Shown here in pieces: positions 25,998 to 50,597 of a stretch of DNA of 64,000 bases (position 1 is the first letter of the stretch; each line of letters opens with the position of its first letter). Made by a program: the position numbers and the translations under genes. The notes under the pieces are model-generated. The model saw only the letters and a list, made by a program, of their open reading frames with translations. It made no database searches and was not told the DNA's origin. The stretch is taken from assembly GCA_963772865.1 (NCBI GenBank), contig CAVYZA010000028.1:10610-74609 (forward strand), in the 5' to 3' direction. The DNA is from an uncultured beta proteobacterium (GTDB taxonomy: Bacteria > Pseudomonadota > Gammaproteobacteria > Burkholderiales > SHXO01).

Positions 25998-26171
25998 CCG
26001 CAGAGGACGCGGAGGAATGCAGAGGAAAGCCAAGGGGGCTTTGCAATCACGGGCCGGGTGCGGTCATCGGCGCATCGCCGTTGCTCCACCCGCGCTAGGG
26101 GCGAGTGTCGCGCCGCGGACAAGCCTGTCGGCCCTTGGTCTTCCTCTGCGATTCCTCTGCGTCCTCTGCGG
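25998..26171. repeat. MITE-like inverted-repeat element (CCTCTGCG family), copy 1
   Basis: Arm 25998-26036 (ccgcagaggacgcggaggaatgcagaggaaagccaaggg) is the near-exact reverse complement of arm 26132-26171 (cccttggtcttcctctgcgattcctctgcgtcctctgcgg). About 36 of 40 positions match, and the arms are ~95 bp apart. Confidence 0.75.
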
Positions 26172-26197
26172 TTCATGCGTTGCGTTTCTGTATCGCC

Positions 26198-28612: not shown

Positions 28613-28688
28613 GCCCGGCGCGGCGATCCTCCGCGCGGGTGCTTCGCGATGCCGGGCTGCTCGGGCAGATGCGGCAGCACGGCGCTCA

Positions 28689-30544: not shown

Positions 30545-31410
30545 TGGCTGTTCCGGAAGAAGCGCCCGCTGATGCCTTGCGGCATGAGGCGCAGCAGAAT
30601 GATCGCGAGCGCCAGCAGGGCAATCTCGCCGATCACGGGCGAATAGGCGAAGGACACGATCTGGCTGACCACGCCGAACAGCGCCGTGCTGGCCAACGTA
30701 CCCGCGATCACCGCACCGGCGCCGCCCGTGATCACCGCGATGAACGCTTGCGCGACGTAGGCGCCGCCCGAGGCGGGCAGCAGTCCGGTCAGCGGCGCCA
30801 GCACCCCGCCGGCCAGGCCCGACAGAGCCGCGCCGATCGCGAAGGTCACCATGTAGACGGTGCGCGGGTTGTACCCAAGCGCCGAGGCGATCTCGGGGTT
30901 CTGCATTGCGCCGCGCGCGATCAGCCCCCAGCGCGTATAGCGCAGCACCACCCACATGGCCGCATAGAGCACCGCCGTCACGCCGATGATGAACAGGTTG
31001 TACCCGCCCATCTGGAACTCGCCGAGCTGATAGCCCGGCAGCGGCGTCGGCACGCTCACCGCCGAGCTGCCGAAGATCAACGTGACCAGCCCGATCAGCA
31101 GCAGGCTCAGGCCCCAGGTCGCGAGCATGGTGTCGATCATGCGGCCGTACAGGAAGCGGATCACCAGCCGCTCGACGATCAACCCCACCAGCCCCACCAC
31201 CAGCGGCGCGATCACCAGCATGGCGAACCAGATGTCGATGCCGGCGCGGTCGCAGGCAAGCGTGGTGTAGCCGCCGAGCATGACGAACTCGCCGTGCGCG
31301 AGGTTGATCACCCGCATCATGCCGAACACGATCGCGAGCCCCGCGCTGATCAGCGCGAGGAACGCGATCATGTACAGGATCTGGAGCAGGACGACGGCGA
31401 TGTAGTCCAT
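30541..31410 (-). CDS. Branched-chain/amide ABC permease, LivH/UrtB-like
   Basis: Intact 289-aa ORF reading LISAGLAIVFGMMRVINLAHGEFVMLGGY...GLIARGAMQNPEIASALGYN. Confidence 0.9.
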   Translation of the reverse strand: MDYIAVVLLQILYMIAFLALISAGLAIVFGMMRVINLAHGEFVMLGGYTTLACDRAGIDIWFAMLVIAPLVVGLVGLIVERLVIRFLYGRMIDTMLATWGLSLLLIGLVTLIFGSSAVSVPTPLPGYQLGEFQMGGYNLFIIGVTAVLYAAMWVVLRYTRWGLIARGAMQNPEIASALGYNPRTVYMVTFAIGAALSGLAGGVLAPLTGLLPASGGAYVAQAFIAVITGGAGAVIAGTLASTALFGVVSQIVSFAYSPVIGEIALLALAIILLRLMPQGISGRFFRNSQ

Positions 31411-31458
31411 CGGTCAGAGGGTCGGAGAGGAGGTGGCGTAGCGCGATTGGATGAGGAA

Positions 31459-31592
31459 CCCCTCTCAGCCTGAGGGGATGTCGTTACTCCTTCCCCCGCT
31501 TGCAGGGGAAGGTTGGGATGGGGGCATGCGAAGACTGGTGCCCGCCCCCTCCCCAGCCCTCCCCCGCGTCCTGCGGACGCAAGGGAGGGAGC
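31459..31592. repeat. Cluster of REP-like palindromic elements
   Basis: Three elements: cccctctcagcctgagggg, tccttcccccgcttgcaggggaaggttgggatggggg and cccgccccctccccagccctcccccgcgtcctgcggacgcaagggagggagc. The cluster lies between the binding-protein gene and the permease gene. Confidence 0.65.
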
Positions 31593-31655
31593 TTCCCGCT
31601 CTCGCCGCGCTCTCCTGTCTCAGGAGCGCCGCGGCGTCTGCCGTTCGAGCACGCC

Positions 31656-32882
31656 TCAGATCTTCACCTCGAACTGCTTGTTCTCGTTCGGATTCTTCAG
31701 CAGGTCGCAGTACTGCAGGGTGTCCGAAGGCTGGCGCTGCTTGACGGTGTTGAGGATGGTGAGCTTCTGGTTCTTCACCTCCATCAGGTGGATGTCGAGC
31801 GCGGCATGATGCGTCTTCGGCTCGATGGTCACCGTGCCGGCCGGCCCGACGATGGAGGGGCCCGACTCGATCGCATTGAGCATCGCCTTGCGGTCCAGCG
31901 AGCCCGCCTTCTTCACGCACTCGGCCCACACGTAGATGCCCTGGTACTGCGACACTGCGATCTCGTGCACGATCTTGGTGTCGCCGAAGCGCTTCTTCCA
32001 GCGCGCCAGGAACTCCTTGTTGGCGGGCGTATCGGCCTCCTGGCTGTAGTTGCCGGCGATGATGATGCCGTCGCCTTCCGCCGGGGACAGGGCCAGGTGC
32101 TCGTTGCCCACACCGAAGGTCGTGGACGCCAGCGGGATCTTCTTGTTCATGCCCTGGGCCGCCCACTGCCGGTAGAACGCCATGTGGGCGCCACCCACCA
32201 GCGCGGAGACCACCCAGTCCGGGTTGGCCTGCTGGATCTTGGCGATGGTCGAGCCGAAGTCGGCCACGTCGAGCGGGAAGAAGTCGGTCGAGGCGACCGA
32301 ACCGCCGCGCTGCGCGATGTAGTGCTGCAGCCACTTGGCCGTGATCTGGCCGTAGTTGTAGTCGGCCGCCAGGATGTAGACCTTCTTGCCCCACTTCTTC
32401 ATGGCGTAGTCGACGATCGGCTCGACCGCCTGCGCCGGCGTGGTGCCGGTGACGACGCAGTTGCGATCGCACACGCCGCCTTCATACAGCACGTTGTAGA
32501 AGTACAGCACGTTGGCGCGCCTGAAGGTCTGGCGGATCGCCTCGCGCGAGGCCGAGGTGATGCCGCCGTGCACGACATCCACCTTGTCGGTGCGCGCGAG
32601 CTGCTGCGCGAACTTGGTGTACAGCGCGATGTCGGACTGGGTGTCGTACTGGATGGCCTTGATCTGGCGCCCCAGCAGGCCGCCGGAGGCGTTGATCTCC
32701 TCGACCGCCATGGTGGTGGCCATCACCATCGGCTTGCCGTAGATGTCCAGGTTGCCGGAGTTGTCCAGCACCGAGCCGAGCAAGATCGGCTTGCTCTGGC
32801 CGAAAGCCGCCAGCGGCCCCAAGCCCCCCGCTACTGCCGCCGCACCGGTCGCGGCAAGAAAGTCGCGCCTAGAAATGCTCAT
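31656..32882 (-). CDS. TAT-signal periplasmic substrate-binding protein of the amide/urea (AmiC/FmdD-like) ABC transporter family
   Basis: Intact 408-aa ORF. The twin-arginine leader reads MSISRRDFLAATGAAAVAG. A type-I binding fold is indicated by ILLGSVLDNSGNLDIYGKPMVMATTMAVEEINASGGLLGRQIK...ADYNYGQ. Confidence 0.9.
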   Translation of the reverse strand: MSISRRDFLAATGAAAVAGGLGPLAAFGQSKPILLGSVLDNSGNLDIYGKPMVMATTMAVEEINASGGLLGRQIKAIQYDTQSDIALYTKFAQQLARTDKVDVVHGGITSASREAIRQTFRRANVLYFYNVLYEGGVCDRNCVVTGTTPAQAVEPIVDYAMKKWGKKVYILAADYNYGQITAKWLQHYIAQRGGSVASTDFFPLDVADFGSTIAKIQQANPDWVVSALVGGAHMAFYRQWAAQGMNKKIPLASTTFGVGNEHLALSPAEGDGIIIAGNYSQEADTPANKEFLARWKKRFGDTKIVHEIAVSQYQGIYVWAECVKKAGSLDRKAMLNAIESGPSIVGPAGTVTIEPKTHHAALDIHLMEVKNQKLTILNTVKQRQPSDTLQYCDLLKNPNENKQFEVKI

Positions 32883-32951
32883 GCCCCTCGTCTCCTTCTG
32901 CTTGGATGAAGTCCGCCGCGGCGCGCTGCGCCGCCGGCAGACGGGCCGGCG

Positions 32952-37864: not shown

Positions 37865-38812
37865 TCAAGCGTGGATCTGCGTCCCCGTTTCTCCCTTCAA
37901 AGCCCGCCCGAGATTCGGCGGGTCGGTGATGATGGCGCGCCCGTGCGGACAGCTGCTCAGGTAGCGCCGAATGGCTTCGATCTTCGGCCCCATGCTGCCG
38001 GGCGGGAAGTGTCCTTGCCGCGCATAGCCCTCGAGCTCTGCAAGCGAGACCTCGCCGAGCCACTGCTGCCGCGGCGTATTGAAATGGATGGCGACGCGCT
38101 CGACGCCCGTGGACACGACGAACAGCTGCGCGCCGAGCTGCCGCGCCAGCAGGCTCGAGGCGAGGTCCTTGTCGATCACCGCCTCCAGGCCCTGCAGATC
38201 CCCGCGTTCATCGGTCATCACGGGAATGCCTCCGCCCCCGCAGGCGATGAGGATGAAGCCTTCGCTCACCAGCTGGCGGATCGCATGCAGCTCGACGATC
38301 TCCTGCGGATCGGGCGAAGCGATCACCCGCCGCCAGCCACGCCCGGCGTCCTCTGCGATGTTCCACCCAAGCTGCTGCGCCAGCGCCTTGGCGGTGTCTT
38401 CGTCCATGTGCGCGCCGATCGGCTTGGTGGGCCGCTGAAAGGCGCGATCGTCGGGCATCACCCGCACCTGCGTGACCAGCGCGACGACGTGGCGCGAGAC
38501 GCCGCGGCGCTTGAGCTCGTTGGACAAGCCGCGCTGGAACATGTAGCCGATCGCACCCTGGGTGTCGGCGTCAGCGTAGTCGACCGGCACCTCCGGAACG
38601 ACCCCTTTGGCGATGCCGGAGCGGCGCAGGATGAAGCCCACTTGCGGGCCGTTGCCGTGGGTCAGGACGACGGTCCAGCCCTGCTCGATGATGTCCGCGA
38701 CATAGCGACAGGTGAGCGTCGCGGCGGCGGCCTGGTCCCGGATCGACTCCTGGCCCGGGCCCAGGATCAGCGCGTTGCCGCCCACCGCGACTACTGCAAC
38801 TCGCGCGCTCAC
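37865..38812 (-). CDS. arcC: Carbamate kinase (paralog 1)
   Basis: Intact 315-aa ORF. Motifs are VVAVGGNAL, LTHGNGPQVG, TKPIG, EDAGRGWRRV, ACGGGGIPV, EAVIDKDLAS and GSMGPKIEA. Confidence 0.9.
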   Translation of the reverse strand: MSARVAVVAVGGNALILGPGQESIRDQAAAATLTCRYVADIIEQGWTVVLTHGNGPQVGFILRRSGIAKGVVPEVPVDYADADTQGAIGYMFQRGLSNELKRRGVSRHVVALVTQVRVMPDDRAFQRPTKPIGAHMDEDTAKALAQQLGWNIAEDAGRGWRRVIASPDPQEIVELHAIRQLVSEGFILIACGGGGIPVMTDERGDLQGLEAVIDKDLASSLLARQLGAQLFVVSTGVERVAIHFNTPRQQWLGEVSLAELEGYARQGHFPPGSMGPKIEAIRRYLSSCPHGRAIITDPPNLGRALKGETGTQIHA

Positions 38813-38824
38813 GTGCGCTCCGAG

Positions 38825-38910
38825 CCCCCACCCTATCCCTCCCCCGCGCGCGGGGGAGGGGGAAGGAAGGATCCCTCCCCCGCTACGCGGGGGAGGGCGA
38901 GGGAGGGGGC
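38825..38910. repeat. REP-like palindromic elements (two adjacent copies)
   Basis: The sequence is ccccaccctatccctcccccgcgcgcgggggagggggaaggaaggatccctcccccgctacgcgggggagggcgagggaggggg. It lies between the permease stop and the carbamate kinase start. Confidence 0.7.
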
Positions 38911-38953
38911 AATGCGTTGCCGAACTTGGAAGGTGAGCACTAAGTACGCTGCA

Positions 38954-40504
38954 TCACTTCGCGCCGCCCTTGGCCTGCGCCGCCACACCCAGGCAGATCA
39001 AGGCAAACAGCACGTAACCCAACGCGACCACGGGCGAGACGCCTAAGCCGAGATGCGTGCCGTGGATCAGGCCGATGTAGGACAGGGCCGCGCCGATGAA
39101 GGCTGTGAAGGCCGCGGTCTTGAGGCGCTTCTCGATGATGAACGCCGCCATCGCTCCCAGCACCATGCCGGCCAGCACGGAGCCGCCGCCGAGGAGCTCG
39201 AGACCGTGGTACAGGACACCGGTCCCGGCGAGCTTGTCCAGCCCGACCTGGGCGGCGGAGGTGCCCGCAGCACCCAGCGCTCCGTCGATCTGCGTCTTGG
39301 CCCACTCGGCCAGATTCGGGATGATCGCCAGCACCACCGCCGGGGCGTGGTTAGACGGCGTGGCCTGGAACGCCTGCGCCCCGATCACCAGGCCGATGTA
39401 GAGCAGGATCGGCAGGATGGCGACCAGCGGGATCACCGCCAGCAGCAGCGCGGTGAGGCCGAGGAAGCACACCAGCGCGATGACGATGCCGGTGGCGAGC
39501 GAATAGCCGACGCGGCCCCCCACTGCCTTCCACCCGGGGTGCCCGATGTAGACCGCCGGCGGGAAGGGGCTGCCCATCACGGCGCCGATGATGGCGCCGC
39601 TGCCGTCCGCGAGCAGGATCTTGCGCAGGTCGTAGCTGTCGCCCGCCGCCGATGCGCTCTCCACGTTGTTCATCGCTTCCACGAAGTTGTAGATGCCCAG
39701 CGGGATGGCGGTCGCGAGCAGCGGCGCCACCTGCTTCAAGCCGGTGAACACGTCGGCGGAGAACAGCGGAACATACAACCCGAAGCGATCGAATGACGCA
39801 CCCACTGCCGCCGGATCCATGTAGTTGCTCCAGCCCGCGAACGCGGCGATCCAGCCGATCAGGGTGCCGACCACGACTGCAGCCAGCCCGCCTGGCACGT
39901 TGCCCGGCAGGCGCATGCCGGCGGTCCACGCGATCAGCACGATGGCCAGCGAGGCGAATCCGATCCACGGCGCCTCCCAGATCTGGAAGGCGGGCCGCAT
40001 CGAGATGAACGTGATCGAGATGCCGGCCAGCGTGCCGAGCATCGCCGCACGCGGCGTCACCCTGCGGATGAACGGTCCGATGAACGCGCCGATCAGCACG
40101 ATCACGCCGATGATCAGGCACCAGGCCAGCCCGGCCTGCCACGCGAGGATCGGGTCCTTGGTCTGCAGGTACACCGGCAGCATCACCAGGAACACCACGA
40201 TGAACATGTGCGGCACACTGGGGCCGTAGGGCATCGCGGTGACGTCGCTGCGCCCTTCCTTCTTCCCCAGCTGGTAGGCCATCCAGGCGTAGAACAGGTT
40301 ACCCAGCGCGAGCGCGATGCCGAGCGCCGGCAGGATGCGCCCGAACACCATGTCGGCTGGCAGCTGCACCAGGCCGATGCACAGGCCGGTGAGCACGATC
40401 ACGTTGAGCAGAATGTTGGTGAACAGGCCAAAGAAGCCGTTCAGATCGCTCGCCACCCACCAACGCGGCGTGCCGGCCGCTTGCGTGCCTACAGCGTTTG
40501 CCAT
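38954..40504 (-). CDS. NCS2-family (AzgA/xanthine-uracil-type) nucleobase-like permease
   Basis: Intact 516-aa polytopic ORF. It reads DLNGFFGLFTNILLNVIVLTG...NVESASAAGDSYDLRKILLADGSGAIIGAVMGSPFPPAVYIGHPGWKAVGGRVGYSL, a pattern typical of AzgA-like permeases. Confidence 0.8.
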   Translation of the reverse strand: MANAVGTQAAGTPRWWVASDLNGFFGLFTNILLNVIVLTGLCIGLVQLPADMVFGRILPALGIALALGNLFYAWMAYQLGKKEGRSDVTAMPYGPSVPHMFIVVFLVMLPVYLQTKDPILAWQAGLAWCLIIGVIVLIGAFIGPFIRRVTPRAAMLGTLAGISITFISMRPAFQIWEAPWIGFASLAIVLIAWTAGMRLPGNVPGGLAAVVVGTLIGWIAAFAGWSNYMDPAAVGASFDRFGLYVPLFSADVFTGLKQVAPLLATAIPLGIYNFVEAMNNVESASAAGDSYDLRKILLADGSGAIIGAVMGSPFPPAVYIGHPGWKAVGGRVGYSLATGIVIALVCFLGLTALLLAVIPLVAILPILLYIGLVIGAQAFQATPSNHAPAVVLAIIPNLAEWAKTQIDGALGAAGTSAAQVGLDKLAGTGVLYHGLELLGGGSVLAGMVLGAMAAFIIEKRLKTAAFTAFIGAALSYIGLIHGTHLGLGVSPVVALGYVLFALICLGVAAQAKGGAK

Positions 40505-40597
40505 TTTTCTTCCTCCCCGGTTGTGGTCCTTGTGCTTAGGAGCTCGTCGTAGTTAGTGCTGCCGCCCGAAAGCGGCTCCTCCATCGATGCGGTTTCA

Positions 40598-41554
40598 TCA
40601 GCCCGGCACCACGTGCGTGCCGGTCGCGCCAGACAACGCGCGGCCGAGGTTGGGCGGATCGGTGATGATCGCGCGCCGCGCGCCGCCGGGCTCGAGGAAC
40701 GAGGCAATGGCCTCGATCTTCGGACCCATGCTGCCCTTGGGAAAGTGCCCCTCGGCCAGATAGCGCCTGGCCTCGCTGAGCGTCATCTGGTCGAGCCAGC
40801 GCTGGTTCGGCTGGTTGAAATGGATGGCGACCTTCTCGACACCGGTCGAGACCACGAACAGGTCGGCGTTCAGGTCGTGCGCCAGCAGCGCCGAGGCGAA
40901 GTCCTTGTCGATCACCGCCTCCAGGCCCTCGAGGCTGCCTTCCGCATCCTCCACCACGGGGATGCCGCCTCCGCCGCACGCGATGACGATGTGGCCCTGC
41001 TCCACCAGCGCGGCGATGATGTCCAGCTCGATGATGCGCTTCGGCTTCGGCGAGCCCACCACGCGCCGCCAGCCGCGGCCCGCGTCCTCCTTCACCACCC
41101 AGCCGAAGTTCGCGGCCAGGCTCTCCGCGACCTCGCGGTCCATGTGCGCGCCGATCGGCTTGGTCGGATTGGCCAGCGCCGGGTCGTCGCGATCCACCAG
41201 CACCTGCGTCACCACCGCCACGACCTTGCGCTTCAGGCCGCGGCGTCGGAACTCGTTGTACAGCGCGCGCTGGAACATGTAGCCGATGGCACCCTGCGTG
41301 TCCGCATCGGCATAGTCCACCGGCACTTCCGGGACCACGCCTTTCGCGATGCCGGAGCGGCGCAGGATGAATCCGACCTGCGGGCCGTTGCCATGGGTGA
41401 GGATCACGGTGACGCCGGCCTCCACCATGTCGGCGACATAGCGGGACGAGATGGCCGCGGCCGTGTACTGGTCCGGGATCGACTGGTGCTGGTCGTCGAT
41501 GATCAGGGCGTTGCCGCCCACCGCGACGATTGCGGTCTTGCCTCGTGCGCTCAT
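40598..41554 (-). CDS. arcC: Carbamate kinase (paralog 2)
   Basis: Intact 318-aa ORF with the same motif set as paralog 1 (AIVAVGGNAL, LTHGNGPQVG, EDAGRGWRRV, ACGGGGIPV, GSMGPKIEA). Confidence 0.9.
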   Translation of the reverse strand: MSARGKTAIVAVGGNALIIDDQHQSIPDQYTAAAISSRYVADMVEAGVTVILTHGNGPQVGFILRRSGIAKGVVPEVPVDYADADTQGAIGYMFQRALYNEFRRRGLKRKVVAVVTQVLVDRDDPALANPTKPIGAHMDREVAESLAANFGWVVKEDAGRGWRRVVGSPKPKRIIELDIIAALVEQGHIVIACGGGGIPVVEDAEGSLEGLEAVIDKDFASALLAHDLNADLFVVSTGVEKVAIHFNQPNQRWLDQMTLSEARRYLAEGHFPKGSMGPKIEAIASFLEPGGARRAIITDPPNLGRALSGATGTHVVPG

Positions 41555-41629
41555 GCCGGCGCTCCTTGTATTTTTGATTCCGGCGCTGTCTGCCAGGGCA
41601 GCGCCCGCAACATGCGAACTTCTGTCGAT

Positions 41630-42031
41630 TCAGCTCCTCACGTTCTCCGCGGCGATGTAGGCTCGCCAGCCGCCGTACGAGGTGATTTCCCGCTGCCCCT
41701 CCACCAGCGCAGGCTCGCCGAGCACACCCAGCACGGTGCTCCCGTCTTCGAGCTTGACCTTGCCGATGCTCAGGCCGGGCGGTTCGTTGAGCAGAATCCC
41801 CGCGAGCCCGGCTGCAGGCACCGACCAGACTTCGACTGCGACTTTGACGCCCTTGCCATCGGTCACGCGGACCATGGCAGGATGCTCGTCGTTGATGGTC
41901 CACAGCCGATACGCGCGCTCGGTCTTCGTCTCCCGAACGAACGTCGCCTTCGCGGCGATCATGTTGGGGTTGAGCTTGAGCCCGCGCATCAACGTGCCGT
42001 TGACCGCGAGCAGGACTTCGCCGGTGCTCAT
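41630..42031 (-). CDS. Stand-alone allophanate-hydrolase C-terminal-domain-like / gamma-glutamylcyclotransferase-fold protein
   Basis: This is the C-terminal 133 aa of track ORF 41630..43588. It reads MSTGEVLLAVNGTLMRGLKLNPNMIAAKATFVRETKTERAYRLW...VAVEVWSVPAAGLAGILLNEPPGLSIGKVKLEDGSTVLGVLGEPALVEGQREITSYGGWRAYI. The ATG at 42031 overlaps the upstream stop (ATGA). Confidence 0.6.
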   Translation of the reverse strand: MSTGEVLLAVNGTLMRGLKLNPNMIAAKATFVRETKTERAYRLWTINDEHPAMVRVTDGKGVKVAVEVWSVPAAGLAGILLNEPPGLSIGKVKLEDGSTVLGVLGEPALVEGQREITSYGGWRAYIAAENVRS

Positions 42032-43450
42032 CGAGCATCTCCTCGAGCGTCGAGTGTCTTGCCGAGTGCCGCGAGCGCCTGGTTGAAGCACTCCATCGGC
42101 GCGGTGGTGATACCGGCGCCGATCTGGCCGACACCCGCCTTCTTGTGGGCGATCCCCGTGTTGATGATCGGCAGGACACCGGAGTCGACCACCAGCCTCG
42201 CGTCGATGCCCGCGGGTGTGCCGCCGAAGTTGAGCGCGGGCAAGGTGAACGCCGGATTGCTGCCCAGCGTGATGGAGAGCATGCGCCGGCTGTTCGCCGT
42301 TGCGTCCGCCGGGTTGCCGCCGACGAACTGCACGATGGCGGGCGAGGCCGCCATCGCAAACCCGCCGAGTCCATTCGTCTCGGTGATGGCCGAATCGCCC
42401 AGGTCGGCGGCGGCATCCTCGATGGTGTAGCCGGGGAAGTACAGGCCGTTGACCGGATTGGCCGGGCGCCTGGAACCACTGATCGCCCGTCCCGCTCAGG
42501 CGAATGCCGAAGTTGACGCCATTGCGTGCCATCACGGTCACCATGCTGCTCCCCGGCACGCCGTGCGCCGCATCGGACATCGACTTGCACGCCGCCATCG
42601 AGAGGTTGAGGAAGAAGTGGTCGTTGCCCGCCACGAAGGTGAGCGCGCGCTTGACGACATCGCTGGAGAGCTTCGAGCCCAGCAATGCCAGCGTCAGCCG
42701 CTTGAACAGCAGCCCGGAGGCCGCGGCGTTGCGGTTGTGCACCTCGTCGCCCATGTGCAGCGCCTGGGCCATCAACGGCTTCAAATTGGCATCGGCCAGG
42801 CCGCGCACCGCAATCTGCATCGCGCTGAAGAACTCGGTGCCCAGCCAGCGCAGCCGGTCGATGACTTCGGGAGAATTCGCGCCGAAGCGCAGCACCTTGC
42901 CCAGCCCCTCGTTGACGTTGCAGAAGGCGCGGTTGCCGGCCGCGGTGTTCTCCACGACCCACACCGGCATCGACGGGCTGATGATGCCGGCCATCGGCCC
43001 CACGGCACCGTAGGTGTGGCACGGCTCCAGGGCCACCGCACCGCTCGCCGCGAGCTTTTCCGCAGCCTCGAGCGTGGCGGCCCAGCCCTCGTACAGGATC
43101 GCCCCGCAGATCGCGCCCTGTTGCGGCCCGCACATGTCGGCCCAGGCGATGGGCGGACCCGAGTGCAGGATGCGCCGCTCGTTGAGCGCGGGGATCGCCT
43201 CGCGCGCGAGGACGAAGTCCACCAGGCGCGGCTGGGCGGCCAGATAGCGCTCGTAGGCGACTCGGTTCGCTTCGTCGATGCGCGCATCACCGATCATGTT
43301 GGCCAGCGTCCAGCCCAGCGCAGCATCCGCCCCCGCAGGCGGCGACCAGCTCAGGTGGGAGACATTCCCGCGCGCCGCGCGGATGTTGTCGGCGAAGCCC
43401 TGCAGGCCGATGTTGATCACCTTGAGGTCCTGCTCGAACAGCGTCTTCAC
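42028..43450 (-). CDS. DUF1116-family protein (E. coli YlbE-like); 1 frameshift near 42470
   Basis: The GTG at 43450 overlaps the fdrA stop (GTGA). Track ORF 41630..43588 supplies VKTLFEQDLKVINIGLQGFADNI...ILHSGPPIAWADMCGPQQGAICGAILYEGWA...CHTYGAVGPMAGIISPSMPVWVVEN. Track ORF 42028..42354 supplies the C-terminus. Confidence 0.8.
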
Positions 43451-45009
43451 GACTTGGCTCCTCTCTCTGCGAGGATAACTGCCGACCAGCTCGCGGCCTC
43501 CGCGTTGGAGGGCGCTACCAGCACGCCGGCCGACTTGAGACCGGTGACGGCCTTGTCGCGGCTCTGCGGGTCGAGGTCGGTGCCGCACACGTAGCCGATG
43601 AACGCGACCGTGCGGCCCGCCGCCGTCGCCTTGGCCTTGGCCGCGCCGATGACGCCGAGGAGCCCCGCGGTCGGGTCCGCCGAGGCTCCGTAGCCGAGGA
43701 CGACGTCGAACAGCACCACCGCCGTAGCCGGGTCGTCCACTTCGTCGCGGATGCGCGCATCACGCAGTGAGGGATCGATCATCGGGTGCGGCCGGCCCTG
43801 GGTGAACTCGTCGTCACCCATGTCGATGATGGTGTTCTCCTGGCTCTTCCAGTTGCTCTCGAGCGGCCGGTTGCCGGCCGTCGGCGTGTTGGAGAAGGCG
43901 CGGATTGACGCCGCAGCGTGCACGAGCTGCGCCTCGAAGCAGAACGTTCCACCCGAGAAGATGCCGCGCACGTAACGCTGGCTCGGGGCCATCGCACGGG
44001 CGAGGCCGCTCAACATGCGGCGCATCTCGGTGGGCACCGCGATCGGTGCTGCGCGGGCCTCGCCGCCTTTCGAAAGCGCCACCGCCATGTCGGCGGCCTG
44101 GGCCAGATAGGCAGCTCCGTGCACCCCCTTGCGGGTAATGGTCGCAGGGTCGGCGCCGAGGAAGATCACCACCACCGGCTTCGCGCTCGCTTCGGCCGCG
44201 GCCAGAACGCGCGCGGCGATCTCCGGCGCCGGCGGCTTGGACACCAGCACGATCACCTTGGTGGCGGGGTCGGCGTCCAGCGCGCGCAGCCCGTAGAGCA
44301 TGGAGATCCCGCCGATCTGCTTGGACAGATCGTGGCCGCCGGTGCCCAGCGCCTGCGACACGCCGGAGCCGAGCTGATGGATCCTGACGGTGACCTCCTG
44401 CGTTCCGGTGCCGGAGGCGCCCACGACGCCGATGGGACCGCGCCGGACGACGTTGGCGAAGCCCAGCGGGACGCCGTTGACGATGGCGGTTCCGCAGTCC
44501 GGCCCCATCACCATCAAGTCGTGCTCGTTGGCGTAGGTCTTCAATGCCAGCTCGCGCTCGACCGGGACGTTGTCGCTGAACAGCATGACGTGCATGCCCA
44601 GCCGCAGCGCCTTCATCGCCTCGGCCGCCGCGTAGTCGCCGGGCACCGAGATCAGCGCGAAGTTGCAGGCCGGATCGCGCGCCACTGCCATCTGGATGCT
44701 GGTGACCGGCGCCTGCGCCGCGGAGTCCTCCTCGTTGCCGCCGCCGGCCTTGGCAGTGAGCAGCTCGTCGGCTTTCTGCAGCGCTTCGGCACAAGCCTCG
44801 TCGGCGCCCGACACCGCAACCACGAGGTCGTTGGGACGGACTTCGAACGTCCCCAACCCGGCGCGCGCGAGGTTCTCGACGTTGGTGGCCGAGGCCATCA
44901 CGACCGAGGCCGCTTCGATCCCCGGCACGGCCGTGATCTTCGCGGACACGGTCATGAGCGAAACCGAGTCCTTGTACAGATTCGGGTAATAGCGCGAGCG
45001 CGTACTCAT
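43447..45009 (-). CDS. fdrA: FdrA (acyl-CoA synthetase/succinyl-CoA-synthetase-alpha-like) protein
   Basis: Intact 520-aa ORF. Motifs are YKDSVSLM, ALISVPGDYAAAEA, MVMGPDCGTAIVNGVPLGFAN, GPIGVVGASGTGTQEV and LGTGGHDL. Confidence 0.9.
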   Translation of the reverse strand: MSTRSRYYPNLYKDSVSLMTVSAKITAVPGIEAASVVMASATNVENLARAGLGTFEVRPNDLVVAVSGADEACAEALQKADELLTAKAGGGNEEDSAAQAPVTSIQMAVARDPACNFALISVPGDYAAAEAMKALRLGMHVMLFSDNVPVERELALKTYANEHDLMVMGPDCGTAIVNGVPLGFANVVRRGPIGVVGASGTGTQEVTVRIHQLGSGVSQALGTGGHDLSKQIGGISMLYGLRALDADPATKVIVLVSKPPAPEIAARVLAAAEASAKPVVVIFLGADPATITRKGVHGAAYLAQAADMAVALSKGGEARAAPIAVPTEMRRMLSGLARAMAPSQRYVRGIFSGGTFCFEAQLVHAAASIRAFSNTPTAGNRPLESNWKSQENTIIDMGDDEFTQGRPHPMIDPSLRDARIRDEVDDPATAVVLFDVVLGYGASADPTAGLLGVIGAAKAKATAAGRTVAFIGYVCGTDLDPQSRDKAVTGLKSAGVLVAPSNAEAASWSAVILAERGAKS

Positions 45010-45838
45010 GCCGCCGCCCTTTCATCGTCAATCCGGAGAAATTCGGGCGCTGCAGCGAGCAGGCCCACACACATATCCGCGCCGGACGTAGCGCCCGTTT
45101 CGACCACGCGCTGAATCTTGTCCGTCAGCCGCTCCAGCGCGGCATTCTCGATCAACGCCGCCACGAGCTCGTGCACGGCCCGGCTGAATCGTCCGGCCAG
45201 CCGCCTGCCGCAGCAGATGCCCGCTGATGTCCGTGGTTCCAGGCAGCAGCGGGAGCAGCGCGCGCCGCAGCGAGTCGGCCGCGGCGACCCCCGCCGGACC
45301 CGAGTGCGCGGACCTGAGAACTGCGAGTATCCCGATCAGCACGTCGTCGCCGGCGGGTGTGGATCCCGGTCCGTGGCCTACCGCGCCTGGCAGGACAATG
45401 CCGAGGGCATCGCGGATCGCGCAACGCCGAGGTCACGTCGCCAGCCAGCCGCGGAGAGCCGGACCAGCATCGATGCCGGACCGCTCCTGCGACGACGGCG
45501 AGGCGCTGACTCAAGCCCGGAACGGGCTTGGCCGGGACCGCGGGCATCCAGCGCGGCGCCGCACGGCAGTCCACCACGAGGCGCCTGCTTCCGGGTCCGA
45601 TCCCCACGAACCCCGATCGGACATCCACTCGCTCGCCGCGGCACAGGCCGAAAGCGTCGAAGGTCCTCGCGCCGACACGAATCCCAAACGCAAGCTCGCC
45701 CTGATCTGCCCCCGTCAGCGTCCACAGGTCGCCCCGGATCTCGAGGTTGACCGCACGCGCGAATACGCTGTGAACAGCACCCGCACTCACTGCGTGCACG
45801 TCGAGCGCGGGGCCCACGGACAGTGCCTGGAGTACCAC
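45006..45838 (-). CDS. DUF2877-family protein (E. coli YlbF-like); at least 3 frameshifts
   Basis: Assembled from track ORFs 45152..45838 (N-terminus), 45028..45342 (LIGILAVLRSAHSG...) and a manually recovered tail. The tail reads KIQRVVETGATSGADMCVGLLAAAPEFLRIDDERAAA-TGA and forms an ATGA overlap with the fdrA ATG (45006-45009). Confidence 0.65.
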
Positions 45839-45844
45839 TTGGCT

Positions 45845-46504
45845 TCAGGAAATCGCCTGGATGAAGTTCTTGGCGTTCGACACCCACCCGAAGATGGCGC
45901 CTTGCGCCTTGATCATCTCGAGGCCGACGCGCTGGAACTCGGGGAAGTAGGACGCCACGCAATCGCTCAGCACCACACACTCGAAGCCGCGGTCGTTCGC
46001 CTCGCGTACCGTGGTGTGCACGCACACCTCGAGTGTGACCCCGCAGACCACGAGCGTCTTGATTCCGCGATCGAGAAGGATCTGCTGCAGATCGGTGGCG
46101 TGGAAGGAGCCCTTGCCGGGCTTGTCGATCACCGGCTCCCCCGCGATCGGATAGAGCTGGTGGATGATGTCGTGCCCCTGCTCCCCGCGCACCAGGATGC
46201 GGCCCATGGGTCCGGGGGTACCGATGAAGGTCTTGCCGCCGCGCGTCAGTTTCGCGGGCGGACAATCGGTCAGATCGGGGCGATGGCCCTCGCGCGTGTG
46301 GATGACCAGCAGCCCCTTCTTGCGTGCCGCAGCAAGCACCCGTTGCGTGGGCTCGACGGCGGCGAGCAGCAGCGAGGTGTCGTTGCCCAGCTTCTCGCCG
46401 AACCCGCCGGGCAGGACGAAGTCGCGTTGCATATCGATGATGACGAGCGCCGTGGAGGCCGCGTCGAACTCGAGCGGGAAAGGCTCGGCTTGAATTACGC
46501 TCAT
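45845..46504 (-). CDS. Isochorismatase-fold cysteine hydrolase (RutB / biuret-hydrolase-like amidohydrolase)
   Basis: Track ORF 45845..46537; the likely start is M12 at 46504. Motifs are ALVIIDMQRDF, HTREGHRPD, KPGKGSFHATDL and the catalytic Cys in LVVCGVTLEVCVHTTVREA. Confidence 0.85.
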   Translation of the reverse strand: MSVIQAEPFPLEFDAASTALVIIDMQRDFVLPGGFGEKLGNDTSLLLAAVEPTQRVLAAARKKGLLVIHTREGHRPDLTDCPPAKLTRGGKTFIGTPGPMGRILVRGEQGHDIIHQLYPIAGEPVIDKPGKGSFHATDLQQILLDRGIKTLVVCGVTLEVCVHTTVREANDRGFECVVLSDCVASYFPEFQRVGLEMIKAQGAIFGWVSNAKNFIQAIS

Positions 46505-46631: not shown

Positions 46632-46988
46632 CTACTGCGCACGCTGCACTGTGCCGCTCTCGGAGATCGCGCTGCACACCGCGTTCGGCACGCACGCCAC
46701 CGAGTAGATCGTGCTCAGCTTGCACCCCGTAACTTCGATGCGGTAGACCACGCGGTGCAGGTTGTATTGATTGCCCAGGTCGCCATGCTCGCGGGACAGC
46801 ACCGCTGGCTTCACGGCTCCGCAGTTGAGATCGGTGCGGGCGCGGTCGATCGCGGCCTCGATGGCCTGCGGCTCCAGCTTGTCCACCATGCCCTGTTGGC
46901 GCTCCGGGCTGGCGCAGCCTCCAAGTTGCAGCACTACGATCGCAACTCCAAGCATCGCGTGAAACATGCCCGCCACCGTCGTGCGCAT
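46632..46988 (-). CDS. Small lipoprotein, unknown function
   Basis: This is the C-terminal 118 aa of track ORF 46632..47528. It begins MRTTVAGMFHAMLGVAIVVLQLGGCASPE, a lipobox L-G-G-C. Its start overlaps the upstream stop by 1 nt. Confidence 0.6.
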   Translation of the reverse strand: MRTTVAGMFHAMLGVAIVVLQLGGCASPERQQGMVDKLEPQAIEAAIDRARTDLNCGAVKPAVLSREHGDLGNQYNLHRVVYRIEVTGCKLSTIYSVACVPNAVCSAISESGTVQRAQ

Positions 46989-48191
46989 CAACTCTCCCTT
47001 GGATGGTTCGAAAGATAGTCTTGCAGGCGGCGCACCCCCTCGGCCAGCACCGGGATCGGCTTCGGATAAGAGAAGCGCACATGCGCCGCGGCCTGATGGT
47101 CGCCGAAGTCGATCCCCGGCGCGATGGCGACACCGGCGCGCTCCAGCAGATCGAGGCAGAACTGGAAGCTGTCGCGGGTCAGCCGGCCGCAGTTGGCGTA
47201 GATGTAGAAAGCGCCCTGCGGAACTACGGGAATGTCGAAACCCAGCTTGCGCAGCTCCGGGAGCAGATAGTCGCGCTGCGCCTGGAATGCCGCGCGGTTG
47301 CGCTCCAGCTCGTCGAGCACCGCCGGCTGGAACACGGCGAGCGCGGCCTGCATCGACACTTCCGGGTTCGAGATGTAGAGGTTCTGCGCCAGCTTCTCGA
47401 TGTCGGCCATGTATTCGGCCGGCGCGACCATCCAGCCGGCGCGCCAGCCGGTCATGCAGAAATACTTGGAGAAGCTGTTGATGACGAACACATCGTCGCC
47501 CAGCTCCAGCGCGCTGCGCGCGGAGCAATCGTAAGTCAGGCCGTGGTAGATCTCGTCGACGATCAGCACGCCGCCGCGGCGGCGCACCACCTCGTGGATG
47601 CGCCGCAGCTCGTCGAATGCGATGAGCGTGCCGGTCGGATTCGATGGCGAGGCCACCATCACGCCAGCCGTCCGTTCGGTCCAGTGACGATCCACCAGCT
47701 CGGCGGTGAGCTGATAGTCGGTGGAAGCGTCCACCGGGATGCCGACCGACTCACCCTCCATCGCGCGCACGAAGTGGCGGTTGGCCGGGTACGCGGGATC
47801 GGCGGTCAGCACCTGGTCGCCGGGCGAGAGCAGGACCCCCATCCCGAGCAGCAGCGCACCCGAAGAGCCGCTGGTCACGGCGATGCGCGCTGGCGGGATA
47901 TCCAGTCCATAGCGCGTGCGGTACCAGCCGGAGAGCGCCTCGCGCAGTGGCGGGTATCCCGAGGGAGGGGGTATAGCGCACCTGCCCGGCCTGCAGCGCG
48001 GCGATGCCGGCGCGGATCACCGGCTCCGGCGTGGGAAAGTCCGGCTCGCCGATGACCATGTTGATGATGCTGCGCCCCTGCGCCTCGAGGGCGCGGGCGC
48101 GCGTCACCAGCGCCACCACGTGGAACGGCTCGATGGCCGCCATGCGGGAAGCGAGACGATGCGACGGGACGAGGCGCTCGGGTCGATTCAT
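46988..48191 (-). CDS. Class I/II pyridoxal-phosphate-dependent aminotransferase; 1 frameshift near 47950
   Basis: Track ORF 47751..48251 from M21 (MNRPERL...IINMVIGEPDFPTPEPV) joined to ORF 46988..47878. Motifs are SPSNPTGT and the PLP lysine in NSFSKYFCMTGWRAGW. Confidence 0.85.
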
Positions 48192-48285
48192 GTGTCTGCC
48201 AGGGGTGGCGCCTGCAGTTTGCGTTAGGTTAGCACAGCCTGCACCCGGCACCGGGACGGGCTACTATTCGGGCGTTTCAAACAGA

Positions 48286-50544: not shown

Positions 50545-50597
50545 GCCCCTTCCCTTGCCTCCCCCGCGAGCGGGGGTCGGGGCGTGGGCAGTGAGCG
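50545..50597. repeat. REP-like palindromic element
   Basis: The sequence is gccccttcccttgcctcccccgcgagcgggggtcggggcgtgggcagtgagcg. Confidence 0.65.

Follow-up and report, generated by a model that had tools for sequence, protein, structure and literature searches.

The window, i.e., the whole stretch of 64,000 nucleotides analyzed here, harbors a gene cassette in which a TrtA-type cysteine hydrolase is combined with the three subunits of a Yah/All-type carbamoyltransferase, a free-standing AH_C protein, a carbamate kinase and a permease. The cassette could work as one catabolic unit that degrades a small, linear triuret/biuret-type ureide, yielding ammonia and ATP, a reading to which a probability of roughly 0.5 is assigned. 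If it holds, small compounds resembling urea would probably serve cells as a source of both ammonia and ATP, by means of a cassette shared among many phyla. This reading was reached because the hydrolase is nearest to TrtA and BiuH and carries TrtA-type residues, the AH_C domain is otherwise known from allophanate enzymes and fills the AtzF slot at four of six Nitrospira loci, the partner transporters include members of the urea-transporter family, the chemistry of AllFGH and AllK makes carbamoyl phosphate and then ATP, and purine or allantoin genes were not seen in those ORFs that were scanned.

Genetic Organization and Conservation of the Cassette

All eight genes are placed on the minus strand (Table 1) within the limits given in the preliminary description, and the family assignments made there were borne out by Pfam and NCBIfam profiles. 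The three junction overlaps it had listed, read on the minus strand, were also found: the AllH stop overlaps the AllF start (ATGA, 45006–45009), the GTG start of AllG overlaps the AllF stop (GTGA, 43447–43450), and the TGA stop of AllG overlaps the AH_C start (ATGA, 42028–42031). The probable GTG start of AllH (45838) lies 6 nt past the hydrolase stop. A pair of REP-like hairpins in the 141-bp gap downstream of the permease separates carbamate kinase 2 from the seven-gene cassette.

Table 1. Features of the locus (window coordinates).
Feature	Position	Strand	Basis or remark
Isochorismatase-fold cysteine hydrolase, TrtA/BiuH branch, 219 aa	45845..46504	-	PF00857; cassette gene 1
AllH/DUF2877 subunit, YahE-like	45006..45838	-	PF11392; three frames, two frameshifts
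AllF/FdrA subunit, 520 aa, succinyl-CoA-synthetase-alpha-like, intact	43447..45009	-	NF004760
AllG/DUF1116 subunit, YahG-sized, ~474 aa	42028..43450	-	PF06545; one frameshift
Free-standing AH_C protein, 133 aa	41630..42031	-	PF21986
Carbamate kinase 1, 318 aa, the cassette's own kinase	40598..41554	-	NF009007, TIGR00746
Polytopic membrane permease, 516 aa, distantly AzgA/NCS2-like	38954..40504	-	
Two tandem 36-nt REP-like hairpin units (CCCTCCCCCGCG...CGCGGGGGAGGG)	38835..38906	.	Repeat finder
Carbamate kinase 2, 315 aa, GTG start	37865..38812	-	NF009007

The comparative genomics proposed in the preliminary description recovered the cassette across phyla. Its seven genes were present in identical order in three metagenome contigs (L001–L003) with unrelated flanks. 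Species-representative genomes gave 48 loci in which AllG is flanked on either side by 5 kb or more. All 48 contain AllF and a carbamate kinase, 46 a TrtA/BiuH-family hydrolase and 44 an AH_C domain; hydrolase, AH_C and kinase occurred together, with AllF and AllG, in 43. The conserved core consists of the hydrolase, AllF, AllG, the carbamate kinase and the AH_C domain, and its carriers include Mycobacterium, Burkholderia, Serratia, Dyella, Vibrio, Nitrospira and Chloroflexota; actinobacterial versions lack AllH, as judged with a home-built HMM. Since the seven-gene order recurs in three contigs and the core in dozens of genomes, the arrangement is not a product of chance. The genes behave as one unit, and the possibility raised earlier that they are functionally unrelated is opposed by the cross-phylum synteny, the overlapping start and stop codons and the fusion of kinase to AH_C.

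As had been pointed out, this gene set is unlike the textbook operons for allantoin, Rut and cyanuric acid/biuret. Allantoinase, ureidoglycolate and cyanuric-acid hydrolase families, and upstream purine or allantoin genes including allD, were not found among the scanned ORFs between ~5 and 62 kb of the window, which represent a subset of its ORFs and include several that matched nothing. As to an assignment elsewhere, a 2025 study described biuH adjoining allFGHK in comammox Nitrospira and ammonia-oxidizing archaea, but took the genes for two neighboring pathways (PMC12625717). In Nitrospira, the operon allH-allF-allG-CK-BmpABC-biuH-trtA is common to six loci and is followed there by a final slot, which is occupied by full-length AtzF in two and by a 131-aa stand-alone AH_C, 81% identical to the cassette type, in four; no AtzF amidase was seen at these four loci. 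The BiuH and TrtA orthologs of this operon show 76 and 67% identity, respectively. Full-length AtzF stands beside the hydrolase-AllFG-kinase set at nine proteobacterial and the two Nitrospira loci, and at most loci outside Nitrospira, there is just one hydrolase and AtzF is missing.

The Hydrolase Carries a TrtA-Type Residue Signature

The hydrolase (PF00857, 145 bits) had been described as of the RutB/biuret-hydrolase type. The isochorismatase fold was upheld, whereas the score against NCBIfam RutB (111 bits, cut-off 378) led to rejection of a RutB-like enzyme, and that against the BiuH model (265 bits) also stayed below its cut-off of 370. Its best PDB match was TrtA (6XIX, 259 bits), followed by BiuH (6XJM/5BK6, ~230 bits) and RutB (98 bits). 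The catalytic residues D24, K129 and C162 are present, as are, at the positions that discriminate TrtA from BiuH (PMC7948467), the TrtA-type F35, N41, E160, Y187 and I205. The catalytic triad is kept in all 55 module hydrolases, and so are E160 and Y187; F35 and N41 occur in each of the 53 that have a residue at these sites, and I205 in 51, the other four having Leu. The BiuH set Y35/Y41/D160/T187/V205 was found in none of the 55. The enzyme is 91% identical to its L001 ortholog, and the cassette hydrolases form a clade of their own with 55–64% identity to characterized TrtA. The residue signature, which is that of one characterized enzyme and is accompanied in the window hydrolase by the BiuH-type Ser at position 134, predicts deamidation of a triuret-like substrate.

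Carbamoyltransferase, Carbamate Kinases and AH_C

AllF matched NCBIfam NF004760 (FdrA; 472 bits, cut-off 433) and the Pfam families CoA_binding and Ligase_CoA; DUF1116 and DUF2877 are now named AllG and AllH in Pfam. The E. coli cluster fdrA-ylbE-ylbF-ybcF named in the preliminary description does exist. Its statement that these families are "linked to" oxamate carbamoyltransferase is right as to the activity and outdated in wording, as purified E. coli AllFGH catalyzes the reversible conversion of oxalurate and phosphate to carbamoyl phosphate and oxamate (2024; PMC11326118), and YbcF/AllK is a catabolic carbamate kinase (PMC9843812). The E. coli activity is described as needing all three genes (PMC11326118). 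In gene order and subunit sizes, the cassette resembles the uncharacterized paralogous module YahE-YahF-YahG-YahI, a second All-like module of E. coli with a different hydrolase, YahJ. AllF is 86% identical to its L001 ortholog, 43% to YahF and 39% to E. coli AllF, and carbamate kinase 1 is likewise nearer to YahI (51%) than to AllK (37%), whereas AllG, compared through the L001 ortholog, is equidistant (46% to both YahG and E. coli AllG).

Carbamate kinase 1 scored 388 bits against NF009007 (cut-off 266) and 358.8 against TIGR00746 arcC (cut-off 358.25), shares 90% identity with its L001 ortholog and is predicted to form ATP and carbamate from carbamoyl phosphate and ADP. Carbamate kinase 2 (NF009007, 359.5 bits against the same cut-off) is 65–70% identical to cassette-type kinases, is missing from the syntenic contigs L001–L003 and, judged by sequence, is a diverged extra copy outside the conserved cassette.

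The AH_C protein (PF21986, 137 bits) is a homolog of the allophanate hydrolase C-terminal domain, and it matched the stand-alone 137-aa protein of PDB 5C5Z (156 bits) better than allophanate hydrolases (46–63 bits). In Pfam, NCBIfam and PDB matches, the domain was otherwise found only in allophanate hydrolase and urea amidolyase. Carbamate kinase and AH_C form one polypeptide at at least 13 loci, among them one in the completely sequenced Mycolicibacterium psychrotolerans P7 (454 aa), further genome loci and three contigs annotated with AA_kinase plus AH_C. Among 1.8 billion proteins, the cluster representative nearest to AH_C has 458 aa and bears AH_C at residues 328–456, the same length and domain position as in the kinase fusion. 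AH_C probably acts on an N-carboxy intermediate or on carbamate. It has an invariant NGTLMRG where AtzF C-domains have GAH(M/L)SG, placing Leu at the position of the usual His. If this His corresponds to the catalytic His reported for yeast allophanate hydrolase, AH_C may not be a decarboxylase here.

Permease and Partner Transporters

The permease has ~10 hydrophobic segments and matched none of the Pfam, NCBIfam or PDB entries. The earlier label of an AzgA-like NCS2 permease is a tentative one, favored by a distant likeness to E. coli GhxQ (hhalign, E = 0.002 over 80 columns; E = 0.2 for XanQ) and by homologs named "AGZA family ... permease" by JGI, but not by any profile or PDB match. The permease, which is presumed to import the substrate, adjoins the module at 15 of the 48 well-flanked loci. 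Partner transporters vary among genomes and comprise AzgA-like, NCS1, urea-transporter-family (PF03253) and Bmp ABC types. With such partners, a purine-like ring as the imported compound, for which the preliminary description had suggested a nitrogen-rich ring or an amide, is less likely than a linear oligo-urea.

Proposed Pathway and Alternatives

In the proposed pathway, the compound would be imported by the permease (elsewhere by a urea-transporter-family channel, an NCS1 permease or a Bmp-type ABC transporter), and the TrtA-type hydrolase would strip one terminal amide as ammonia, leaving an N-carboxylated ureide, i.e., carboxybiuret from triuret or allophanate from biuret. The AllH-AllF-AllG transferase would then split the H2N-CO-NH- bond with phosphate, in place of hydrolysis of the intermediate by an AtzF-type amidase, giving carbamoyl phosphate and a shortened N-carboxy compound (allophanate, then carbamate) in parallel to the action of E. 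coli AllFGH on oxalurate. By our own chemical inference, carboxybiuret and allophanate have the H2N-CO-NH-CO-...-COO- skeleton of oxalurate, and the transferase would act on these rather than on oxalurate itself. Carbamate kinase would supply the ATP, its carbamate decaying to CO2 and NH3, and the AH_C protein beside it would act on the carboxylated leaving group, either as a decarboxylase of N-carboxy intermediates or of carbamate, or in a binding or scaffolding role.

Several observations weigh against the ureide reading. The sole characterized transferase homolog acts on oxalurate, and at 39–46% identity, the substrate cannot be read from sequence. Where full-length AtzF is present, a phosphorolytic allophanate route would be redundant, or the substrate of the transferase differs. 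Carboxybiuret, with a half-life of ~20 min (PMC7948467), and allophanate both decarboxylate spontaneously; hence, the absence of AtzF is no proof of a replacement enzyme. The Leu of stand-alone AH_C, the separate clade of the cassette hydrolases, which are compared with a single TrtA, Ser134 of the window hydrolase, the actinobacterial versions without AllH and the frameshifts in AllG and AllH in the window also count against it.

An ordinary oxalurate pathway, in which oxalurate or a precursor such as parabanate is imported, AllHFG forms carbamoyl phosphate and oxamate, the kinase makes ATP and the hydrolase deamidates oxamate or another by-product, is considered unlikely. Pfam and NCBIfam place the subunits in the AllF, AllG and AllH families, the only experimental activity of which is oxamate carbamoyltransferase (PMC11326118), and the 2025 study of nitrifiers annotates the same genes as oxalurate degradation (PMC12625717). 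However, the complex is nearer to YahEFG-YahI in gene order, subunit sizes and the identity of AllF and the kinase (AllG being equidistant), allD and other allantoin genes were not found among the scanned ORFs nearby, and the near-universal AH_C, its fusion to the kinase, the TrtA signature and the urea-transporter-family partners would be left unexplained.

Somewhat less probable still is the use of another small carbamoyl compound (urea, a guanylurea-like compound, oxaluramide or a carbamoylated metabolite) by the same logic of deamidation, phosphorolysis and ATP formation. The separate hydrolase clade, the highly diverse transporter partners including urea-transporter-family channels, and the E. 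coli Yah module with YahJ, which suggests that different feeder enzymes can partner the transferase family, are in line with it. The active-site and second-shell residues, however, match TrtA at five of the six discriminating positions in every member having a residue at the site (save for Leu in place of I205 in 4/55), AH_C points to N-carboxy-urea chemistry, and the Nitrospira operon joins transferase, kinase and AH_C to bona fide BiuH and TrtA orthologs.

Two independent adjacent pathways, a biuret/triuret hydrolase and an oxalurate module, as in the published reading (PMC12625717), are improbable despite the complete BiuH/TrtA/AtzF set of some loci, as the single hydrolase without AtzF at most non-Nitrospira loci makes no complete second pathway, the hydrolase stop is within 6 nt of the next gene or directly abuts allF, the 43/48 loci with hydrolase, AH_C and kinase span phyla, and the "biuret-pathway" AH_C is fused to the "oxalurate-pathway" kinase.

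Frameshifts in AllG and AllH

Two of the eight genes carry a total of three frame breaks, which the preliminary description had overlooked. In AllG, one extra base near 42464 splits the gene over two frames; DNA alignment showed gcgcccGgcc in the window against gcg-cc(a/c/g/t)gc in six homologs, the site being a short G/C run. PF06545 matched at profile positions 1–200 in one frame (274 bits) and 190–215 in the next, and the pieces share 90.6 and 93.5% identity with the intact L001 ortholog. AllH is broken near 45405 and 45185 into three frames: PF11392 matched at positions 2–65 in one frame and 60–108 in another, a home-built AllH HMM matched both pieces, and tblastn with intact orthologs of 273–293 aa gave three collinear pieces.

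Elsewhere in the window, an unrelated aminotransferase is broken near 47990 and an unrelated amidase near 26790, the latter giving a full-length match of 821 bits when its two frames are joined; an AMP-binding enzyme and a UrtD-like ATPase are probably frame-broken as well. As unrelated genes are similarly broken and the AllG halves retain such identity, the breaks are most likely sequencing or assembly errors, although real recent mutations are possible. That the cluster is a decaying pseudogene in this genome, with all three frameshifts real and AllG and AllH not made, is thought doubtful. Three breaks fall within two genes, and no exact copies of AllF, the hydrolase or AH_C, the three intact proteins looked up, were found in public collections, leaving no independent assembly for comparison. 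The single frame changes in the other genes, certain for two and probable for two, however, fit indel-prone sequence, the AllG insertion lies in a G/C run between halves 91–93% identical to an intact gene, and a related nanopore-named contig shows fragmentation of the same type.

The REP-like motif of the hairpin pair occurs in seven copies in the window, whereas 1.6 would be expected by chance.

Gene organization of the cassette

The eight genes that the preliminary description had placed in one co-directional cassette were all recovered on the minus strand at the same positions, and the three 4-nt start/stop overlaps that it had reported were found exactly so (table). The probable GTG start of AllH (DUF2877) lies 6 nt past the hydrolase stop. 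On the 5′ side of the hydrolase gene there is a gap of 127 bp and then a small lipoprotein ORF (46632-46988, minus strand). This 118-aa ORF, positioned between the aminotransferase and the hydrolase, carries a signal peptide and a lipobox (…LQLGGC…) and has no counterpart in the metagenome contigs syntenic with the cassette. No regulator gene adjoins the cassette in the window. The Rfam scan of the whole window returned no riboswitch or other RNA family, with no guanidine or other leader 5′ of the cassette, and the promoter and terminator scan gave nothing exceeding the shuffled expectation.

Coordinates of the cassette genes, of neighboring features of the window and of kinase-AH_C fusions in related loci
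Feature	Sequence	Position	Strand	Remark
Isochorismatase-fold hydrolase	window	45845-46504	minus	
DUF2877/AllH	window	about 45006-45838	minus	
FdrA/AllF	window	43447-45009	minus	
DUF1116/AllG	window	42028-43450	minus	
AH_C protein	window	41630-42031	minus	133 aa
Carbamate kinase 1	window	40598-41554	minus	
Permease	window	38954-40504	minus	516 aa
Carbamate kinase 2	window	37865-38812	minus	
Two tandem 36-nt REP-like hairpin copies	window	38835-38906		between permease and carbamate kinase 2
PLP aminotransferase	window	47900-48250	minus	just upstream of cassette; frame change near 47990
PRK07235-type amidase	window	26198-27700	minus	frame change near 26790; 821 bits over the full length once the frames are joined
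AMP-binding enzyme	window	24845-26197	minus	matches first part of model only; probably frame-broken too
UrtD-like ATPase	window	28597-29532	minus	matches first part of model only; probably frame-broken too
Kinase-AH_C fusion	locus L015	11410-12774		
Kinase-AH_C fusion	locus L086	11431-12774		
Kinase-AH_C fusion	locus L088	11410-12789		
Kinase-AH_C fusion	locus L089	4724-6103		

The gene set itself proved real, but frameshifts in AllG (DUF1116) and AllH had been overlooked. The AllG Pfam model is spread over two frames and that of AllH over three, and tblastn with intact orthologues placed collinear pieces of both proteins in different frames. DNA alignment of the AllG gene with six homologues revealed one extra base, inside a G/C run, and the two halves of the protein are 90.6% and 93.5% identical to an intact orthologue. 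Single frame changes in unrelated genes suggest that the sequence is indel-prone across the whole window. Since unrelated genes are also broken and the AllG halves remain this close to the intact orthologue, the breaks in AllG and AllH are quite likely indel errors in the sequence and not decay of the operon. Exact copies of the window AllF, hydrolase and AH_C were not found in the public protein collection. In a related locus, L087 (contig name ending in _np1212), the ORF calls gave 146 aa for AllH, 350 aa for the kinase and 102 aa for AH_C; this fragmentation is of the same kind as that of the window and fits long-read indel errors in such data.

A hydrolase of the TrtA/BiuH branch

The isochorismatase-fold enzyme had been described as of the RutB/biuret-hydrolase type. 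Its best scores against PDB entries were 259 bits for triuret hydrolase (TrtA), about 230 bits for biuret hydrolase (BiuH) and 98 bits for RutB, which upholds the TrtA/BiuH branch. The RutB part did not stand, as TIGR03614 gave 111 bits against a cut-off of 378, and no other rut genes were seen; the enzyme also remained below the cut-off of the BiuH NCBIfam equivalog (265 bits, cut-off 370).

The window hydrolase carries the triad D24/K129/C162 and the substrate residues F29/K132/Q202. Among the cassette hydrolases, K129, K132 and C162 are found in 55/55, D24 and F29 in each of the 53 sequences that cover these positions, and Q202 in 54. TrtA is separated from BiuH by the positions F35, N41, A134, E160, Y187 and I205 (PMC7948467). 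The window protein is TrtA-type at five of these six; at position 134 it has Ser, its sole match to the BiuH set (Y35, Y41, S134, D160, T187, and V205). Across the cassette clade, E160 and Y187 occur in 55/55, F35 and N41 in every one of the 53 that cover these sites, and I205 in 51; position 134 is Ala in 35 of the proteins and Ser in the other 20. Together, these 55 hydrolases make up a clade of their own, 66-94% identical to the window protein, and share 55-64% identity with TrtA and 49-57% with BiuH. Loci from Nitrospira code for orthodox orthologues of BiuH (about 76%) and TrtA (about 67%).

Most related loci contain a single hydrolase, and neither a second hydrolase nor an AtzF (allophanate hydrolase) with its amidase domain is present within the window cassette. 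The one amidase-signature gene found in the window, ∼11 kb away, was considered as a detached AtzF amidase domain and rejected, as the repaired protein is a full-length general amidase of the PRK07235 type (821 bits) and scored only 140-150 bits against allophanate hydrolase models. The "467-aa protein" that some loci repeatedly show between the AtzF and hydrolase genes was likewise discarded, being an arginine-rich antisense shadow ORF.

Transferase subunits and the first carbamate kinase are mostly Yah-like

The preliminary family assignments of FdrA, DUF1116, and DUF2877 were borne out by Pfam and NCBIfam models, with 472 bits for FdrA model NF004760 (cut-off 433), 274 bits for PF06545 (AllG), and 41 and 31 bits for PF11392 (AllH) on two frame pieces. 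The three subunits are encoded together and belong to the AllFGH protein families. Both kinases exceeded the cut-off of 266 on NF009007 (388 bits for the first, 359.5 for the second), which corroborates their assignment as carbamate kinases; on TIGR00746 (cut-off 358.25), the first scored 358.8 bits and the second 344.5, under the cut-off. Oxamate carbamoyltransferase activity has been shown for purified AllFGH of E. coli (PMC11326118), whose catabolic carbamate kinase is YbcF (PMC9843812). The suggested link to oxamate carbamoyltransferase plus carbamate kinase thus held for the protein families, but not for orthology to the oxalurate enzyme, the gene order and subunit sizes of the cassette being Yah-like.

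The E. coli operon allFGH-allK (fdrA-ylbE-ylbF-ybcF) also combines the three transferase families with a carbamate kinase and has the same proposed logic, i.e., phosphorolysis of a ureide to carbamoyl phosphate and then ATP. It differs in gene order (F-G-H-K vs H-F-G-(AH_C)-K in the cassette) and in protein length (AllG of 419 aa vs about 474 aa, AllF of 555 aa vs 520 aa), adjoins allECD, and lacks a cysteine hydrolase, AH_C, and permease. None of allD, allC, and allE was among the scanned ORFs of the window, and no allantoin genes were among the recurrent neighbors in 80 related loci. In contrast, the E. coli paralogues in yahE-yahF-yahG-yahI-yahJ have the H-F-G-kinase order and the subunit sizes of the cassette (YahF 515 aa, YahG 472 aa). 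The cassette proteins are nearer to Yah for AllF (43% identity with YahF vs 39% with AllF) and the kinase (51% with YahI vs 37% with AllK), and the AllH of the syntenic contig L001 scored 64 bits against YahE and 35 bits against AllH. For AllG, the identity of the L001 orthologue is equal, 46% over 461 aa of YahG and over 415 aa of AllG. The data therefore did not favor orthology to AllF/AllG/AllH over YahF/YahG/YahE. Furthermore, the first ∼45 AllG residues (window 43300-43450, minus strand) align with profile positions 509-552 of the E. coli FdrA model, at its C-terminal end, so that a segment that is C-terminal in E. coli FdrA is N-terminal in cassette AllG, and the AllF/AllG gene boundary differs between the All type and the Yah/cassette type (locus L084 being the E. 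coli fdrA 3′ end). The Yah operon has a hydrolase gene too, but YahJ is a metal-dependent amidohydrolase and not of the isochorismatase fold; the cluster lacks AH_C and a permease and has the ankyrin protein YahD. Being itself uncharacterized, the Yah module gives no clue to the substrate.

The stand-alone AH_C protein and the permease

Apart from the cassette, the known occurrences of AH_C are confined to the C-terminal part of allophanate hydrolase and urea amidolyase. The free-standing AH_C-like domain of the preliminary description is indeed present: the 133-aa window protein consists of this domain alone and covers only positions 437-563 of the TIGR02713 profile. No N-terminal amidase-signature domain is joined to it, and it thus does not have the architecture of allophanate hydrolase. 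An invariant NGTLMRG motif, with Leu, was observed in 52/52 stand-alone or kinase-fused AH_C sequences. AtzF C-domains have GAH(M/L)SG in its place, with His in 67%, and the His of this G-A-H-(L/M)-x-G motif at the start of the C-domain, which we take to be catalytic, is absent from the cassette type. The closest solved relative is PDB 5C5Z, a stand-alone protein of 137 aa (156 bits, full-length alignment) that shares the NGTLMRG motif; it was deposited as 'glutamyl-tRNA amidotransferase', a name that looks like annotation carry-over. TrtB (carboxybiuret decarboxylase) was considered as an AH_C relative and set aside, since it is treated as a relative of AtzH/HpxZ (phylogeny in the supplement of PMC12625717).

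The permease matched nothing in Pfam (including PF00860), NCBIfam, or PDB. Comparison by hhalign gave E = 0.002 with E. coli GhxQ (80 columns at equivalent positions, probability 14%) and E = 0.2 with XanQ. Its AlphaFold model has a mean pLDDT of 46, from a shallow alignment of 31 sequences that are all at least 75% identical. The label 'AzgA-like' is weakly supported.

The gene set is conserved across phyla

Homologues of AllG are plentiful and highly conserved: about 8,000 were scored, and the best 120 of these are 82-90% identical over the query part. Three metagenome contigs show an identical seven-gene order with unrelated flanks, and in these AllH (273-293 aa) and AllG (471-474 aa) are intact. 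In a survey that represented each species by a single genome, 80 loci were recovered. They span Acidobacteria, Chloroflexota, Nitrospira, Alpha-, Beta-, and Gammaproteobacteria, and Actinomycetota, the last with several isolates of Mycobacterium and Mycolicibacterium. In 48 loci, AllG is flanked by 5 kb or more on either side; of these, AllF and carbamate kinase are present in all 48, a TrtA/BiuH-family hydrolase in 46, the AH_C domain in 44, and hydrolase, AH_C, and kinase together in 43. The gene order varies between loci, and the gene set stays. The transporter is the variable member. Of the 48 loci, 15 have an AzgA-like permease; Enterobacterales, Burkholderia, Dyella, and Vibrio carry one of the NCS1 type, several MAGs encode a urea-transporter-family protein, and Nitrospira has a Bmp-type ABC system. 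Regulators of the GntR/FCD or LysR type are frequent neighbors of cassette loci.

A single polypeptide of 447-459 aa combines carbamate kinase with AH_C in at least 13 loci, and its gene often precedes one of the urea-transporter family. Four such loci are given in the table, and 10 others also carry the fusion. The carriers include the complete genome of Mycolicibacterium psychrotolerans P7, Mycobacterium/Mycolicibacterium isolates, and many MAGs. The closest AH_C representative among 1.8 billion proteins (458 aa, AH_C at residues 328-456) matches such a fusion in length and domain position. That the genes are functionally unrelated, an outcome that the preliminary description had considered, is argued against by the conserved set and the fusions; owing to this co-occurrence, hydrolase, transferase, and AH_C are unlikely to be chance neighbors.

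AllH/DUF2877 was not detectable within 10 kb in L004-L012, L014, L015, L020, and L034, which are mostly actinobacterial; L034 is a Hyphomicrobiales MAG, and L011 is an Acidobacteria MAG whose contig begins at allG. Where examined, the hydrolase stop in these loci abuts the allF start. The oxamate carbamoyltransferase activity of E. coli has been described as needing all three genes (PMC11326118).

The L001 cassette is ∼90% identical to that of the window. Between L001 and loci of Actinomycetota, an Acidobacteria MAG, and several proteobacterial classes (L004-L020), identity is 81-87% for AllG, 81-85% for the hydrolase, and 77-83% for AH_C. This unusually high similarity across phyla suggests that the cassette may have spread horizontally in recent times. 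Among 72,556 plasmids, a megablast search with the 8.8-kb region detected a single match, of 612 bp with 76% identity in the hydrolase gene (Methylobacterium), and no annotated near relative.

Relation to known ureide pathways

In the TrtA-BiuH-AtzF pathway of Herbaspirillum sp. BH-1 and Rhizobium leguminosarum (PMC7948467), the hydrolases are of the same family as that of the cassette, which bears the TrtA signature, and the C-terminal domain of AtzF is homologous to cassette AH_C. Most cassette loci differ in lacking BiuH and the AtzF amidase domain and in having carbamoyltransferase and kinase in addition. The kcat/KM of TrtA for triuret is 6x10^5 M^-1 s^-1. In comammox Nitrospira and ammonia-oxidizing archaea, biuH has been found collocated with allFGHK and was read as representing separate biuret and oxalurate pathways (PMC12625717); the stand-alone AH_C and the kinase-AH_C fusion are absent from the discussion in that work. 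The Nitrospira loci of the survey (L052, L066, L069, L071, L073, and L079) have the same transferase, kinase, and AH_C families together with TrtA/BiuH-family hydrolases, but carry orthodox BiuH and TrtA orthologues and a Bmp ABC transporter in place of the single cassette-clade hydrolase.

Arginine and agmatine deiminase pathways proceed by deimination or deamidation, phosphorolysis of the ureido group to carbamoyl phosphate, and ATP formation by carbamate kinase. The energetic principle is the same as that proposed for the cassette, but their transcarbamylase has the ATCase/OTCase fold, unrelated to the FdrA/DUF1116/DUF2877 complex.

In the literature available as full text, a coverage outside which most subscription journals lie, PMC12625717 was the sole work found to combine these families. 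Descriptions of the cassette-specific hydrolase clade, of the transferase as Yah-type, of the kinase-AH_C fusion, of urea-transporter-family partners, or of a phosphorolytic allophanate or carboxybiuret route were not found within the same coverage. Judged from sequence comparison, the cassette appears to be a widespread and coherent combination of the AllFGH/carbamate-kinase module with TrtA/BiuH chemistry.

A possible energy-conserving route of triuret and biuret breakdown

The preliminary description had envisaged an uncharacterized route from an imported N-rich ring or amide compound to carbamoyl phosphate and ATP. This is partly supported and needs updating, as the activity of AllFGH has since become known and the hydrolase carries mostly TrtA-type residues. 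The TrtA signature together with the AH_C domain points to N-carboxy-urea chemistry (triuret to carboxybiuret, biuret to allophanate), and the transferase and kinase point to carbamoyl phosphate and ATP.

The six Nitrospira loci share the operon allH-allF-allG-CK-BmpABC-biuH-trtA and are collinear except for a last slot, located at about 18.4-20.4 kb in each. This slot holds full-length AtzF (616-636 aa) in L069 and L071, and a stand-alone 131-aa AH_C, 81% identical to the cassette type, in L052, L066, L073, and L079; the latter four showed no AtzF amidase for allophanate within the locus. Based on the hydrolase signature, AH_C, the transferase plus kinase, and these four loci, we propose as the likeliest mechanism that the Yah-type complex would cleave carboxybiuret and/or allophanate with phosphate, that the kinase would make ATP from the carbamoyl phosphate, and that AH_C would process the carboxylated leaving group beside the kinase. 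Such cleavage would parallel that of oxalurate since, by our chemical reasoning, oxalurate, carboxybiuret, and allophanate share the skeleton H2N-CO-NH-CO-...-COO-.

Several observations weigh against this mechanism. Among homologues of the transferase, the one that has been assayed uses oxalurate, and the actinobacterial cassettes have no detectable AllH. Eleven loci carry full-length AtzF in addition, and allophanate and carboxybiuret can decay spontaneously. The conserved AtzF-type His is missing from AH_C.

Phosphorolysis by the Yah-type complex is thus put forward tentatively, with a probability of about 35% for the following reading as a whole. Yah-type AllH-AllF-AllG would be an allophanate/carboxybiuret:phosphate carbamoyltransferase, which with the TrtA-like hydrolase, kinase, and AH_C would form an unrecognized route that replaces allophanate hydrolase and, through substrate-level phosphorylation, gains 1-2 ATP for each triuret or biuret. 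It would be widespread, its carriers ranging from Mycobacterium to comammox Nitrospira. The Yah module of E. coli, an orphan so far, would by the same reasoning join a ureide phosphorylase family with varied feeder hydrolases.

Triuret and biuret arise as fertilizer impurities and from urate oxidation. If the proposal is true, the terminal steps of their breakdown can yield ATP and are not purely hydrolytic, orphan Yah-type modules gain a substrate class, and the stand-alone AH_C, with a structure already solved, gains a role. The 'oxalurate genes' beside biuH in comammox Nitrospira and ammonia-oxidizing archaea would then need a new reading, which bears on the organic nitrogen compounds that can feed nitrification. 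The cassette is carried by cultured, genetically tractable Mycolicibacterium, Caballeronia, Serratia, Rahnella, Dyella, and Vibrio.

Other features of the window

The REP-like, G/C-rich hairpin units (CCCTCCCCCGCG / CGCGGGGGAGGG) also occur at 31557-31568, 3289-3300, and 50557-50568, with 7 occurrences of the motif in the window where 1.6 would be expected. A Urt-like ABC transporter followed by the general amidase and AMP-binding enzyme is encoded at 26198-32951 (minus strand), about 5 kb away from the cassette. Its UrtA/B/D/E-like proteins all scored under the equivalog cut-offs, and the group is possibly an operon for uptake of short-chain amides or urea. The region 5472-21124 is a run of large high-GC ORFs without Pfam match, except for a DUF6603 protein at 16444-18258.
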